Shown: positions 16,350 through 24,202 of the stretch, piece by piece
Position numbering within the stretch: the first letter of the stretch is position 1
Layout: each line of letters opens with the position of its first letter
Assembly (NCBI GenBank): GCA_034520235.1
Contig: JAXHNS010000002.1
Coordinates: 144,045 to 208,044, forward strand
Source of the DNA: Fidelibacterota bacterium
GTDB taxonomy: Bacteria > Fidelibacterota > Fidelibacteria > Fidelibacterales > Fidelibacteraceae
DNA length: 64,000 bases
Direction: 5' to 3'
Notes under the pieces: generated by a model
Databases searched by the model: none
The model's input: only the letters and a program-made list of their open reading frames with translations
What the model was told of the DNA's origin: nothing
Made by a program: the position numbers and the translations under genes

Positions 16350-16685
16350 CCGGGCGGCTTTTTTATGTCATATATTATCGTGGCAAAGTATGCGCTGCCC
16401 AAAAACTGACCAAAAAACGACCATACCTATCATAATTGCCCATATTTTGCCTGTTTTGGCTATATTTTGATAAAAATGTCCCTAAATAATAAACCCTGTA
16501 AATGTTTGTTTACAGGGCAGTTAAGTGTGGCTCCGGCCGGAATCGAACCAGCGACACAGGGATTTTCAGTACTCTGTTCACTGCTGATAATCAGTAAGTT
16601 ACAAGACGAGGCGCCCGAAAACTGCCCGGTGTTTAAAATGGCTTTTTAAAGGCCTTAAAGTTGAGTATTAATGCGGGTTTTGGGG
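16350..16685 (-). repeat. copy 1 of the tRNA-Phe 3'-half repeat (left arm + 43-nt tRNA core + right arm)
   Basis: 16528-16570 is identical to tRNA-Phe from the discriminator base to the anticodon loop. The flanks on both sides match copy 2 (20817-21151). The left arm and core match copy 3 (23952-24172). Confidence 0.85.
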
Positions 16686-16864
16686 TCTGCACTTCTAGGA
16701 CTTGGTGAAAACAAGGTTTATGTGAACTGAGGTTTGGTCTTTGAAAAAATAAACTGTTTTTCCATTATTAAAGTTAAAGTTTAATACAACAATTGCTATA
16801 TAATTTATTGTTATCACACATTTTTTTTATTAAACTATTTTGTAAACAATAAATAAGGATAAGG

Positions 16865-19800
16865 GTGAAAGCCATGCTGAAAAAATCATTCATTCTAGGG
16901 TCAGTATTATCTTTTTGTGTCAGCATTTTAATTGCACAAACAGCTGAAATACCAACAGACGGTGACGGCTCTTCGGAAAATCCATATCAAATTGCAAGTT
17001 TAGCCAATCTGCGTTGGCTTAGTGAGAACTCCGATAAGTGGGCTTCGGGTATCTATTTTATTCAAACGGCTGATATTGATGCATCCGAGACTCAAGCCTG
17101 GAACGACAGCACCGGCTTCTCGCCGATAGGGAATAACGATACCAAGTTTCTGGGGAATTATCTGGGCAACGGACATACAATAACCGGGCTTTATATTAAT
17201 CGCCCGACAAGCAATTATATAGGTTTATTTGGATATATGGGATCAGATGCCAAAATTAGCGATTTGGGTCTGATTGATGCTAATATTAACGGTCAAGTTT
17301 TGGTCGCTAGCCTGATAGGAATTAATGCTGGTAGCGTATATAACTGCTATTCAAGTGGTTCGGTTACTGGAAAAAGGAATATCGGCGGCCTGATAGCAAG
17401 TAATAGTGGCACTATATCAAACTGCTATGCCAGCGGGTCGGTTTCCGGAACGGGAGACTATATCGGCGGCCTGATAGCAAGTAATAGTGGCACTATATCA
17501 AACTGCTATTCAAGTGGGTCGGTTACTGGGACGCACATGATCGGCGGCCTGATAGGGTATAATCGTGGCACTATATCAAACTGTTATTCAAGTGGGTCGG
17601 TTACTGGAGAAAGCAATATCGGCGGCCTGATAGGTTATAGTGGTGGTGGTGGTGCAATAACCCCCTGTTTTTGGGATAATACGGTCAACTCCGGGTTAGA
17701 TGGAGTAGGAGATGGACCTAGCGGTGATCAAGTTTTTGGTAAAACAACGGCCGAGATGCAAACAGAAAGCACGTATACTGATGCAGGCTGGAACTTTATG
17801 GCAAACAATGACACCTATAACGAAGGTGAATACTGGTATATTTTCGACAGCAGCTATCCGGCTCTCGCATGGCAGGTCATTCAAACGGTAAGCACATTGA
17901 TTGCAACTGATGTTACTGAGACTACAGCAACTCTCAATGGCAGACTTTTTGCCAACGGCTACGCTACCACTGTTGAATTTGAATGGGGAACGACAAGACT
18001 TTACGGAAATACGGTTGATATGGGAAGCTATGGTGCATCTGACTATGTAGATATAAGTACCTAAATTTCGGGACTGACAAAAAATACGTTATACCATTAC
18101 CGTATAAAAGCCACACATACCGACGGTTCTGAAATTAAAACAGCCTATGGTGCCAATAAAATATTTTCAATTACCCCCAGTGGTGACGGCTCTTTGGAAA
18201 GTCCATATCAAATTGCAAGTTTAGCCAATCTGCGCTGGCTCAGTGAAAACTCCGATAAGTGGGCTTGGTATATCTATTTTATTCAAACGGCTGATATTGA
18301 TGCTTCCGAAACTCAAGCCTGGAACGACAGCACCGGTTTCTCGCCGATAGGGAATGATAATACTAGCTTCAAGGGTAACTATAATGGTAACGGACATACC
18401 ATCACCAAACTTTATATCAATCGTCCGACAAGCGATTATATAGGATTATTCGGATATATGAGTTCAGGTGAACTTAGCAATTTGGGACTGATCGATGTTA
18501 ATATTACAGGTCGAGACAAAACTGGCGGCCTGATAGGATATAATCATTACAGCAGATTATCAAACTGCTATTCAAGTGGTTCGGTTACTGGAGAAAGCAA
18601 TATCGGCGGCCTGATAGGTTATATTAATCATAACAGCAGATTATCAAACTGCTATTCAAGTGGTTCGGTTACTGGAGAAAGCAATATCGGCGGCCTGATA
18701 GGTTATATTAATTATAGCAGCCTATTATCAAACTGTTATTCAAGTGGGTCGGTTACTGGAGAAAGCAATATCGGCGGCCTGATAGGTTATAGTGGTGGTG
18801 GTGGTGCAATAACCCCCTGTTTTTGGGATAATACGGTCAACTCCGGGTTAGATGGAGTAGGAGATGGACCTAGCGGTGATCAAGTTTTTGGTAAAACAAC
18901 GGCCGAGATGCAAACAGAAAGCACGTATACTGATGTAGGCTGGAACTTTATGGCAAACAATGACACCTATAACGAAGGTGAATACTGGTATATTTTCGAC
19001 AGCAGCTATCCGGCTCTCGCATGGCAGGTCATTCAAACGGTAAGCACATTGATTGCAACTGATGTTACTGAGACTACAGCAACTCTCAATGGCAGACTTT
19101 TTGCCAACGGCTACGCTACCACTGTTGAATTTGAATGGGGAACGACAGACTCTTACGGAAATACGGTTGATATGGGAAGCTATGGTGCATCTGACTATGT
19201 AGATATAAGTACCTCAATTTCCGGACTGACAAAAAATACGTTATACCATTACCGTATAAAAGCCACACATACCGACGGTTCTGAAATTAAAACAGCCTAT
19301 GGTGCCAATAAAATATTTTGTATCGAAACTCCGCCGATTACACCCAGTGCTGGTGACGGCTCTTCGGAAAATCCATATCAAATTGCAAGTTTAGCCAATC
19401 TGCGCTGGCTCAGTGAAAACTCCGATAAGTGGGCTGATGGCATATATTTTATTCAAACGGCTGATATTGATGCTTCCGAGACCCAAGCTTGGAACAATGG
19501 TGCCGCCTTCTCGCCGATAGGGAATGATAATACTAGCTTCAAGGGTAACTATAATGGTAACGGACATACCATCACCAAACTTTATATCAATCGTCCGACA
19601 AGCGATTATATAGGATTATTCGGATATATGAGTTCAGGTGAACTTAGCAATTTGGGCCTAATCGGTGTTAATATTATAGGTGATATATATATCGGCGGCC
19701 TGATAGGAGCTGCTGATAATAATGGTGCTGTATCAAACTGCTATTCAAGTGGGTCGGTTACTGGGACGCACATGATCGGCGGCCTGATAGGAGGTAATAT

Positions 19801-20782
19801 TAGCACTATATCGAACTGCTATGCCAGCGGCTCGGTTTCCGGAACGGGAGACTATATCGGCGGCCTGATAGGATATAATCATAGCAGCAGCGTATCAAAC
19901 TGCTATTCTAGCGGGTCAGTTTCCGGAACGGGAGACTATATCGGTGGCTTATTAGGGAAGGTGTCTAGTGGTACAATAACCGCCTGTTTTTGGGATAATA
20001 CGGTCAATTCGGGTTTAAATGGAGTGGGAGATGGATATAGCGGTGATCAAGTTATCGGAAAAACAACGACCGAGATGCAAACAGAAAGCACATATACTAA
20101 TGCAGGCTGGAACTTTGTAGAAATATGGGGCTTGCATAATACAATAAATGATGGTTACCCACATCTTTTTTGGCAATTACCCTTGCCAAGAATAAAAATT
20201 GATTCTATTGAAAATATAACAATAGCCTCTGTAGATATCATTGGTGATTTGTTATACCTTGGCTTTCCACACCCTAGTCAGCACGGCTTCTGCTGGAACA
20301 CGGAAGGCGATCCGACACTGGAGGATGATTTCATTGAATTGGGAGCGCCTGATTCAACTGGCGTATTCACTGCACAGATCACGGGACTAACCCCGAACAC
20401 CCTTTATTATATCCGGACTTATGCAACAAATGAAGCGGGAACAGGGTACAGTGAGGTCATCTCTTTTACTACGCTGGAAACCGCAATCGCTGAGGGTATC
20501 CCCTTAAGCTATGCCTTGTCTCAAAACTACCCAAACCCCTTCAACCCGACGACCACCCTGCAATACGGCCTCCTAGAAGCATCAGACATAGATCTAACAA
20601 TCTTTGATGTAACGGGCCGTAAGATAAAAAGCTGGCATATCAACAACCAACAACCCGGCTGGCACGAAGTAAAATGGGACGGTACAAATCAGTCCGGACA
20701 GCAAGTTTCGACCGGTGTTTATATTTACACTTTACAAGCCGGAGATTTTGTTGCTACGAAGAAAATGGTTTTTATGAAGTAG
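16865..20782 (+). pseudogene. GLUG-repeat surface protein with T9SS C-terminal sorting domain; one 1306-codon frame interrupted by a single in-frame TAA at 18062-18064
   Basis: The features, in order:
- signal peptide MKAMLKKSFILGSVLSFCVSILIAQT
- three tandem modules, each PYQIASLANLRWLSENSDKWA...FIQTADIDASETQAWN, followed by repeated NIGGLIGY....SNCYSSGSVTG (GLUG-type) units and an Fn3-like segment
- C-terminus SQNYPNPFNPTTTLQY...GVYIYTLQAGDFVATKKMVFMK

ORFs 16865-18064 and 18194-20782 are in the same frame. The paralogous codon in module 2 is TCA. Confidence 0.75.
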
Positions 20783-23693: not shown

Positions 23694-23951
23694 TCTAATC
23701 CCTTGTTTTTTGGGCTCTTTTGATTTATTAAAATTGATTGCTTCACTGCTTGCATTTTATGATATCTTGCTGTTTTTACAATGAACTTCTGCTGTTGCAC
23801 TTACGAGTTGAATTCAGGATATAAAACACACAAAGACAATCCTTATAACCATTATCCCCATTTATTATTTATTGCTCTTTATAATCTACGAAATAGAAAG
23901 ATCTTGTCAAATAATTATTATAAAAAAACACTTCCGTCTTCTTTCATATCC

Positions 23952-24172
23952 CCGGGCGGCTTTTTTATGTCATATATTATCGTGGCAAAGTATGCGCTGC
24001 CCAAAAACTGACCAAAAAACGACCATCCTTATCATAATTGCCCATTTTTCGCCTGTTTTGGCTATATTTCGATAAAAATGTCCCTAAATAACAAACCCTG
24101 TAAATGTTTGTTTACAGGGCAGTTAAGTGTGGCTCCGGCCGGAATCGAACCAGCGACACAGGGATTTTCAGT
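23952..24172 (-). repeat. copy 3 of the repeat (left arm + core), continuous with the intact tRNA-Phe gene
   Basis: It has the same left arm and 43-nt core as copies 1 and 2. Beyond 24172 the sequence continues into the genuine 5' half of the tRNA. Confidence 0.85.
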
Positions 24173-24202
24173 CCCCTGCTCTACCGACTGAGCTACAGAG
24201 CC
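24130..24202 (-). tRNA. tRNA-Phe (anticodon GAA)
   Basis: The minus strand folds by hand into a cloverleaf: GGCTCTG TA GCTC AGTCGGTA GAGC A GGGGA CTGAAAA TCCCT GTGTC GCTGG TTCGATT CCGGC CGGAGCC A. It is 73 nt and CCA is not encoded. A terminator hairpin CCCTGTAAA-N6-TTTACAGGG plus T-run follows on the same strand. Confidence 0.9.

Follow-up and report, generated by a model that had tools for sequence, protein, structure and literature searches.

The 64,000-nucleotide stretch of contig JAXHNS010000002.1 from a Fidelibacterota bacterium that was analysed here (the window) contains a tRNA-Phe gene and three direct copies, the third at the gene itself, of a repeat that includes the 3' part of this tRNA and that brackets two cargo modules without an integrase. 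In the best-supported reading, the region is that part of a genomic island which lies next to the tRNA, the island having been made by repeated site-specific integration at the anticodon loop of tRNA-Phe. The two modules are probably comparable to cis-mobilizable elements (CIMEs), built up by serial site-specific integration and dependent on a tRNA-Phe integrase family acting in trans. A preliminary description of this DNA had proposed a tandem array of att-like repeats, and this proposal is largely borne out, as the copies behave as attachment-site units of a tRNA-Phe-targeting family and a candidate integrase family is present in relatives.

Repeat units at tRNA-Phe

The three copies, found in the same orientation by a repeat search and by blastn, lie at 16350–16684, 20817–21151 and 23952–24172. 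Copies 1 and 2 are 94% identical over 335 bp, and the stretch of copy 3 at 23952–24181 is 95% identical over 230 bp; in the alignment the copies diverge from one another by 5–8%, with copy-specific differences. A 42-nt core string occurs exactly three times in the window with no mismatch, where no occurrence is expected and shuffled windows gave no match. The intact tRNA-Phe(GAA) gene at 24129–24202 on the minus strand (ARAGORN; Rfam RF00005, 69.5 bits) is the sole tRNA in the window according to ARAGORN and Rfam, and it overlaps copy 3 only, with the 3' 43 nt of the tRNA (24130–24172) forming the core of this copy. The 43-nt identity spans the region from the 5' edge of the anticodon loop to the discriminator base, and both the tRNA and its terminator are restored intact. 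Thus, an intact tRNA is found together with direct repeats of its crossover-to-3'-end segment, as is expected of a tRNA-integrated island. The core operon ffh–rpsP–rimM–trmD–rplS lies to the right of tRNA-Phe, with the tRNA coming after the operon and a GC content of ~52%, whereas the GC content to the left of the tRNA is 31–48% up to the window edge. Relatives of the TrmD protein place the organism in Fidelibacterota (Candidatus Marinimicrobia).

In the direction of the tRNA, the full unit consists of a 114-bp P arm, the 43-nt core and a 178-bp P' arm, with a total length of 335 bp. Copy 1 (P' arm 16350–16527, core 16528–16570, P arm 16571–16684) and copy 2 (P' arm 20817–20994, core 20995–21037, P arm 21038–21151) are complete attP-like junctions on the minus strand and are the only copies to have the 114-bp P arm in common. 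Copy 3, with its P' arm at 23952–24129 on the same strand, is the tRNA-proximal, attL-like junction. No fourth core or third P arm was found in the window by core-string, blastn and P-arm searches. The earlier account of the repeat is confirmed: there are three direct copies, of which the third alone is the real tRNA-Phe (repeat search, blastn, ARAGORN and Rfam agree); the arm with the terminator hairpin, put at ~180 bp, is 178 bp in the alignment of all three copies; the alignment likewise shows the exact 43-nt match to the tRNA, bounded by the discriminator base and the anticodon loop; and the second arm of ~115 bp, confined to copies 1 and 2, is 114 bp.

Along the P arm, the block AAACCCGCATTAATACTCAAC is succeeded by a small hairpin with a T run after it, then by GGGCAGTTTTTGGGY, the palindrome CTGATTATCAG and ACAGAGT. 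The block AAACCCGCATTAATACTCAAC (minus strand, 21127–21147 in copy 2 and 16660–16680 in copy 1) is the most conserved part of the P arm; it occurs twice in the window, with no occurrence expected, and is nearly invariant, only three of 13 aligned copies from eight sources having a substitution or a 1-nt indel inside it. A repeat motif, GGGCAGTTTTTGGGT, is located in the P arm at 21080–21094 (16613–16627 in copy 1; minus strand), at a distance of 43–57 nt from the core. The 7-nt anticodon loop is flanked by an imperfect inverted repeat, composed of ACAGAGT and the 3' strand of the anticodon stem (TCCCTGT), which has the classical position and shape of the core site of tRNA-targeting tyrosine integrases. 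The P' arm starts with the tRNA terminator hairpin, CCCTGTAAA-N6-TTTACAGGG, which is kept in all three copies (24095–24120 in copy 3), and at +106 nt it contains GGTCGTTTTTT-GGTCAGTTTTT-GGGCAG. The direct repeats GGTCGTTTTTT/GGTCACTTTTT/GGTC of the P' arm are phased by 11 bp (20864–20889, 16397–16422 and 23999–24024; minus strand) and lie 106 nt from the tRNA 3' end.

The GGKCNNTTTTTGGKC motif has nine matches in the 64 kb compared with 0.68 expected, and eight of the nine are inside units, all eight on the tRNA strand. It is present in both the P arm and the P' arm, in one orientation and with 11-bp phasing, such that arm-type repeats flank the core on both sides as in a complex attP. Judged from their sequence, these phased GGKCNNTTTTT/GGKCNNTTTTTGGKC repeats are candidate arm-type integrase sites that would be bound by the protein. 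As a whole, the unit has the appearance of a complete attP-type site. The repeat had been regarded as too long for an att core, leaving room for a new kind of cassette system; this is not needed, because a whole attP arises again where two stacked elements meet, and a length of 335 bp is ordinary for an attP.

No inverted repeats of at least 30 nt were found by the repeat search in 14–26 kb, and the RNAalifold consensus of ten copies has an energy of −10.4 kcal/mol with a covariation term of +0.27. As this fold is weak, the conservation of the unit lies in its primary sequence and not in a structure. An exact 30-mer of the P' arm had no match in the genome, metagenome and viral collections, the P-arm pattern had no match in viral contigs, and a distant blastn search of the unit against a phage collection gave nothing. 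At the left boundary of the repeat, the terminator hairpin of the adhesin gene (20804–20828, plus strand) extends into the outermost part of the copy-2 P' arm; as had been described, the boundary falls inside this hairpin, which is complete in copy 2 only.

Between the copies lie Module A (16685–20816, plus strand, 4132 bp), with a GLUG-repeat adhesin carrying a type IX secretion system (T9SS) C-terminal sorting domain (Pfam Glug 1.8e-31, Por_Secre_tail 1.3e-6), and Module B (21152–23951, minus strand, 2800 bp), with three co-directional open reading frames (ORFs) that have signal-peptide or lipoprotein-like N-termini; the cargo is thus the adhesin and three envelope-type ORFs reported previously. 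When all module ORFs were scanned against Pfam and NCBIfam, no recombinase or transposase was found in either module, which agrees with the earlier view of modules without an integrase or transposase and with the absence of own recombination and transfer functions that characterizes CIMEs. Among the best 25 of 35 Pfam families matched by stop-to-stop ORFs of at least 75 aa in 1–24300, there was no Phage_integrase, and of recombinase or transposase type the scan gave only two IS3-type rve fragments, remote from the copies. The sole match of 73 integrases of the tRNA-Phe family in a tblastn search of the whole window was the XerD gene at 34229–35155 (TIGR02225 equivalog, 355 bits versus a cutoff of 329.6), which is 10 kb from the array and is the only tyrosine recombinase in the window. 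The suggestion that an integrase may be situated in the A+T-rich DNA left of 16350 is accordingly dropped.

The integrase family and related arrays

An integrase gene inside the island, which is lacking in the window, is found in relatives at L003, L082, L088 and L090–L093 (L numbers denote loci fetched for comparison). In L003, a 336-aa tyrosine integrase (PF00589, E 4.6e-25) is located 248 bp after tRNA-Phe, together with an HTH_17 excisionase. Homologues with 72–88% identity occupy the same place beside a full tRNA-Phe gene in L082, L088, L090 and L092, and in L080/L081, L091 and L093 the integrase is beside a contig end that falls inside the 3' half of tRNA-Phe. The rplS–trmD synteny is also present in L082 and L088, and the integrase-bearing elements also hold a DUF5906 protein and small regulators. 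In all close relatives, the integrase-type P' arms have the tRNA terminator hairpin and GGTCAGTTTTTGGTCAG at +106–109 nt, as in the window, and among the 89 loci compared for it the exact GGKCNNTTTTTGGKC motif is confined to the unit-bearing and the tRNA-Phe integrase-bearing ones. In L079 and L076, the P arm and core are joined to the first 57–61 nt of an integrase-type P' arm, L079 matching L091 and L076 matching L003 with zero mismatches over these 57–61 nt, until the contigs end. The core, the distance of the motif and the L079 and L076 junctions indicate that the modules are bounded, as CIMEs are, by att sites of an integrase-encoding family. Two metagenomes, Ga0265293 and Ga0265294, are the source of both integrase contigs and integrase-less units.

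Further integrases are found at tRNA-Phe with 51% identity and an own phased repeat, GGTGACTTTTTGGTGAC (L083), and at tRNA-Met with 45% identity and GGACAC/GGGCAC repeats (L094), such that integrase, target and motif vary together. The integrase search in viral contigs gave one irrelevant match only. In L086 (6834–8929) and L087 (477–2572), two 333-aa integrase paralogues are arranged in tandem, 93 bp apart, behind one excisionase gene; in L087, inspection by eye of the 428 nt that come after the second integrase revealed no tRNA-Phe, and no tRNA scan was run on either locus.

The P-arm pattern, built on the AAACCCGCATTAATACTCAAC block, retrieved seven metagenome loci. In these contigs, the P arm and core bound cargo encoding T9SS proteins, a 2149-aa RHS protein, PEGA/FGE-sulfatase proteins, an M6 peptidase and a Fic protein, and neither a full tRNA nor, in the ORFs of at least 110 aa scanned against Pfam, an integrase was found at these loci. 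In L076, two units are separated by 8.1 kb. The 3' halves of other tRNAs also occur next to the P arm, namely one with a CAT anticodon loop (Met-like) in L074 (1471–1582) and L007 (12909–13060), and one in L075 (118–300) that has a TAA anticodon loop and a long variable arm (Leu-like).

A comparable array is present in L007, a metagenome-assembled genome (MAG) of another species, the TrmD of which is 80% identical to that of the window and the ffh–trmD DNA 82–83% identical. This array comprises tRNA-Phe with a P' arm, a full unit at 14422–14757 and a distal P arm at 20010–20121, after which there is an apparent decayed tRNA 3' half. The units of L007 are 92–95% identical to those of the window, above the 82–83% of the ffh–trmD DNA, and the copies within a genome are also 92–95% alike. 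The position-matched units are the closest across the species, with 94.9% identity both for copy 2 of the window and unit b of L007 (14422–14757) and for the P' arm of copy 3 and unit a, the arm beside tRNA-Phe in L007. The cargo of L007 is unrelated to that of the window and consists of a BNR/sortilin-like protein, a YkuD protein and GLUG/LamG T9SS proteins, the adhesins of the two arrays having ~33% protein identity. The question raised earlier, whether different cargo is found between copies at the tRNA-Phe of relatives, is thus answered in the affirmative, the units being near-identical and the cargo unrelated, but an empty site of the form adhesin terminator, arm and tRNA was not found in relatives. 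In L007, too, the P' arm has this adhesin terminator hairpin at its outer edge, and the window contains a similar hairpin at 1335–1361. A decayed Met-type unit sits inside the tRNA-Phe array of L007.

Origin of the array and comparison with known systems

In the proposed mechanism, the attP of an incoming element would consist of the P arm, a 43-nt copy of the 3' part of the tRNA and the P' arm, and each integration would regenerate tRNA-Phe. When elements are stacked, every internal junction would again be a whole attP-like unit, as in copies 1 and 2, and the junction with the real tRNA would be composed of the tRNA 5' half, the core and the P' arm, as in the attL-like copy 3. Excision as a circle, re-integration and co-excision with a neighbour would need the integrase and excisionase of the relatives' family in trans, and the integrase would act on the phased GGKCNNTTTTT arm repeats and the anticodon stem-loop core. 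As neither module has a recombinase, the modules may be regarded as cis-mobilizable (CIME-like) or satellite-like passengers. We infer that the tRNA-Phe integrase family made the array and that the modules are still mobilizable, and from the sequences it is plausible that the window-type arms are recognized by the integrase of the relatives. The 92–95% conservation of the P' arm across modules and species suggests a distinct and maintained satellite-like lineage rather than fresh deletion derivatives.

Several observations weigh against this origin. An integrase of the tRNA-Phe family, intact or as a fragment, is absent from the 64-kb window, and no integrase-bearing element was recovered in full, up to a distal P arm, as L080, L083/L084 and L094–L097 end inside the element or without a second core. 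The P' arm of the integrase-less modules has only the hairpin and the repeat motif in common with the integrase-type P' arm. The position-matched similarity across species also fits an old, vertically inherited and possibly fixed array, and to the left of copy 1 the DNA has decayed and lacks a closing P arm.

One alternative, which we consider rather unlikely, is that the array is a fixed relic of ancient integrations, the integrases of which are gone, with immobile modules and with units kept for a host function. Under this explanation, and with the same reserve, the units may provide the tRNA terminator, separate convergent or tandem surface-protein genes as terminators, insulators or promoters, or bind a host protein. 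The lack of an integrase in the window is in keeping with a relic, as are the predicted terminators inside the units, the promoter-like site after the P' arm and the richness of the neighbouring DNA in pseudogenes and insertion sequence (IS) fragments, and the greatest similarity of the position-matched units (94.9% for both pairs) suggests vertical inheritance. However, a relic does not readily account for near-identical units with unrelated cargo in two species, for a P arm that is conserved in sequence without evident terminator or promoter logic over its full length or for an arm motif that is equidistant in integrase-bearing elements of the same samples; moreover, the non-coding units are more conserved than ffh and trmD, which points to sequence-specific protein recognition. 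It is less probable still that the units are cassettes of homologous recombination, in which 335 bp of portable homology would allow RecA-dependent duplication, deletion and swapping without a site-specific recombinase. Units of this length with 92–95% identity within and between genomes are sufficient for such recombination, and the cargo does vary between conserved flanks. Nevertheless, this process would leave unexplained why the identity block is exactly the part of the tRNA from the anticodon loop to the 3' end, why the phased arm repeats are common to integrase-bearing elements and why P-arm variants are found on Met-like and Leu-like tRNA halves; it would also homogenize the units, yet the copies within a genome are no closer than those of different species. 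Homologous recombination between units is feasible and may act in addition to site-specific integration.

Two other explanations have little left in their favour. A structured RNA, in which the P arm and tRNA half would yield a transcript with a tRNA-like or regulatory role and each repeat would be a copy of its gene, is very improbable. Each copy does end with the T-arm and acceptor 3' strand and has the terminator of the tRNA, and the small P-arm hairpin keeps its pairing through changes (GGCATTTAAAGAGCC versus AGCGCATTAAGCGCT), but the only Rfam match is the real tRNA, there is no 5' strand to pair with the acceptor 3' strand and the consensus fold of −10.4 kcal/mol is accompanied by a covariation term of only +0.27; the structured-RNA reading was rejected on these Rfam and RNAalifold results. 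An assembly artefact, either a single tRNA-flanking repeat that was falsely triplicated or foreign contigs joined at the repeat, seems hardly credible. Short-read contigs of relatives or of the same strain (L001, L080/L081 and L091) do break inside units, but a false triplication is unlikely because the copies have specific differences of 5–8% and because the independent MAG L007, the contig name of which has the suffix 'polypolish', has the same multi-unit architecture, as has L076 with its two units.

Returning to serial integration with an integrase in trans, the closest known counterparts are the CIMEs at the ICESt1/ICESt3 site of Streptococcus thermophilus, which are integrase-less segments between att sites that become tandem by accretion (PMC5704250, PMC3146451). 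As in the streptococcal case, the modules described here lack an integrase, are bounded by att sites, are arranged in tandem at the target of the family and would move only with a recombinase from a related element. Unlike the streptococcal CIMEs, the target is the tRNA-Phe anticodon loop in an uncultured phylum of the FCB group; the modules are small (2.8–4.1 kb in the window and up to ~8 kb in L076) and carry surface-protein and toxin genes; the arms form a lineage of their own, with 92–95% identity across species, that is distinct from the integrase-adjacent arms; and the window has no helper element. The ssrA islands of Dehalococcoides are arranged in tandem downstream of one small-RNA gene and are separated by direct repeats of its 3' end, and 15 of them are without an integration module and have been proposed to be cis-mobilizable elements; they use a serine recombinase, with a 20-bp ssrA repeat and insertion in the T-loop (PMC3146451). 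Both systems have extra conserved sequence flanking each repeat and integrase-less members, whereas the present one has a candidate tyrosine integrase, a 43-nt core that begins at the anticodon loop and whole conserved arms of 114 and 178 bp.

The tycheposons of Prochlorococcus carry a tyrosine recombinase, an excisionase and a small module for replication and insert themselves at tRNA genes, and their islands contain partial tRNAs and cargo left behind, with stacked elements separated by partial tRNAs (bioRxiv 10.1101/2020.12.28.424599). The relatives' elements, with an integrase, an HTH_17 excisionase and a DUF5906 protein, have a similar layout. The modules of the window do not have the hallmark recombinase and replication module, and unlike in tycheposons the partial tRNAs are embedded in full conserved attP-like units that bound integrase-less modules. 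The array also resembles integron cassette arrays in that small cargo units each have a conserved recombination-site-like element and the cargo varies between genomes. Unlike integron cassettes, the modules have their own promoters and either orientation, and there are no attC-type palindromes: inverted repeats of at least 30 nt are absent from 14–26 kb and the fold is weak, without covariation. Where an integron would have intI, attI and a cassette promoter, the array has a tRNA that lies downstream of rplS. An integron was therefore rejected, with no intI or attI beside the array, only the XerD equivalog, and no attC-type sites.

The locus extends the known class of tandem tRNA-anchored islands with integrase-less modules to an uncultured phylum; the concept established with streptococcal CIMEs, Dehalococcoides ssrA islands and Prochlorococcus tycheposons is extended and nothing is overturned. 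Fidelibacterota (Marinimicrobia) are abundant and uncultured, and no description of their mobile elements was found in the literature searched. Together with its relatives, the locus defines an integrase family, its tRNA targets and a complete attachment site including candidate arm-type sites, with accessory surface-protein and toxin genes of the phylum packaged as discrete att-bounded modules behind tRNA genes. It gives a handle for spotting flexible islands in MAGs, for explaining assembly breaks and for testing the movement of integrase-less modules in trans.

The unusually well conserved full-length att units leave room for a more cassette-like use. That the units are not leftovers but working sites of a tRNA-anchored cassette platform in Fidelibacterota is a bold idea and, in our estimation, improbable. 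If it were true, modules of one to three genes (adhesins, envelope proteins, RHS or Fic toxins) would be swapped by trans-acting tyrosine integrases, each module being framed by a dedicated conserved P' arm with a promoter and a P arm with a terminator, and one P-arm design would be re-used with tRNA-Phe, tRNA-Met and tRNA-Leu cores. This would amount to an integron-like function for cell-surface and conflict genes, with attP-type sites replacing attC.

Cargo modules and neighbouring DNA

The adhesin of Module A occupies one frame at 16853–20779 that reads in the direction opposite to the tRNA and is interrupted by an in-frame TAA at 18062–18064; within it there are internal direct repeats ~1.15–1.2 kb apart with 84–100% identity. 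In Module B, a promoter-like site, TTGACA-16-TAGATT (23883–23910), precedes the ORFs, which according to the ORF list encode proteins of 391 aa (22518–23693, with a lipoprotein-like N-terminus), 207 aa (21886–22509) and 212 aa (21196–21834), all on the minus strand. The 391-aa protein is identical to the NCBI MAG protein U5N26_11605. Its homologues are found in ordinary contexts without units and are therefore uninformative on the mobility of the module. In look-ups for strain variants, the exact 391-aa protein was found only in a 1.8-kb contig (L001) that ends in the P' arm, and the exact L19 protein gave no record. The same module is present in SRR26473339.

Co-directional cargo genes behind P' arms encode different proteins and have a common promoter/leader, GCCTTGACAA...TTACTTAATAAATAAAGACGAGG.AAAATGG, which is found in L007 (11310–11420, 13268–13332 and 20421–20485), L077 (~425–560) and L078 (~5050–5260); in L078, a coreless P arm is fused straight to the promoter/leader. 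In L073 (3460–3720) and L004 (3365–3528), a second partial T-arm/acceptor fragment, interrupted by a ~40-nt hairpin, is located ~150 nt past the end of tRNA-Phe or the core, and in L073 another type of P' arm is next to it; from their sequence, these fragments look like nested att remnants. The short-read contigs L001, L080/L081, L091 and L094–L097 end in the core, the arms or the first kilobases of integrase-bearing elements, and the units are evidently a systematic assembly breakpoint in Marinimicrobia metagenomes. In L002, the closest relative with sequence downstream of tRNA-Phe (TrmD 85% identical), the tRNA-Phe at 11097–11171 has the usual 5' half, and its T-arm and acceptor 3' strand are divergent, with no obvious pairing to the 5' acceptor strand and an unrelated flank; the cause could be another element or a faulty assembly close to the end of the contig.

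Immediately to the left of copy 1, the alignment shows a decayed promoter/leader-like stretch at 16150–16349 on the minus strand (columns ~60–160), which by an estimate made by eye, and not computed, is roughly 65–70% like the promoter region of Module B at 23750–23951. No ORF follows this stretch in the ORF list, and it is probably, to judge by this resemblance, the stump of a third, co-directional module. The low-GC DNA distal to copy 1 (1362–16149) contains IS3-type fragments, an AstE/AspA-type gene, a cyanophycinase, a broken cyanophycin synthetase and a broken CheB/CheR–PAS–kinase gene, and no integrase or further P arm was found in it; its membership in the array is uncertain. In this part of the window (1–16349), the cyanophycinase is intact, the cyanophycin synthetase (~4547–7400) and the CheB/CheR–PAS–histidine kinase–receiver gene (~8.9–15.9 kb) are each split into many ORFs, and two IS3-type transposase remnants are located at 1437–2350 and 9988–10586. 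As the genes to the right of the tRNA look intact, the low-GC stretch appears to be truly decayed and not to reflect sequencing errors.

The hairpin at 1335–1361 was considered as a boundary of the type seen in copy 2 and was rejected: it is similar, but it belongs to another T9SS gene as part of the terminator, and an IS3 copy comes next. The window at 1204–1361 comprises the T9SS C-terminal domain and terminator hairpin of a gene for an ice-binding-like protein and is 79% identical to L007 at 14741–14899, where the sequence abuts the P' arm; in the window, the IS3 copy comes after the hairpin. From this similarity, 1204–1361 may be an old boundary of the array.

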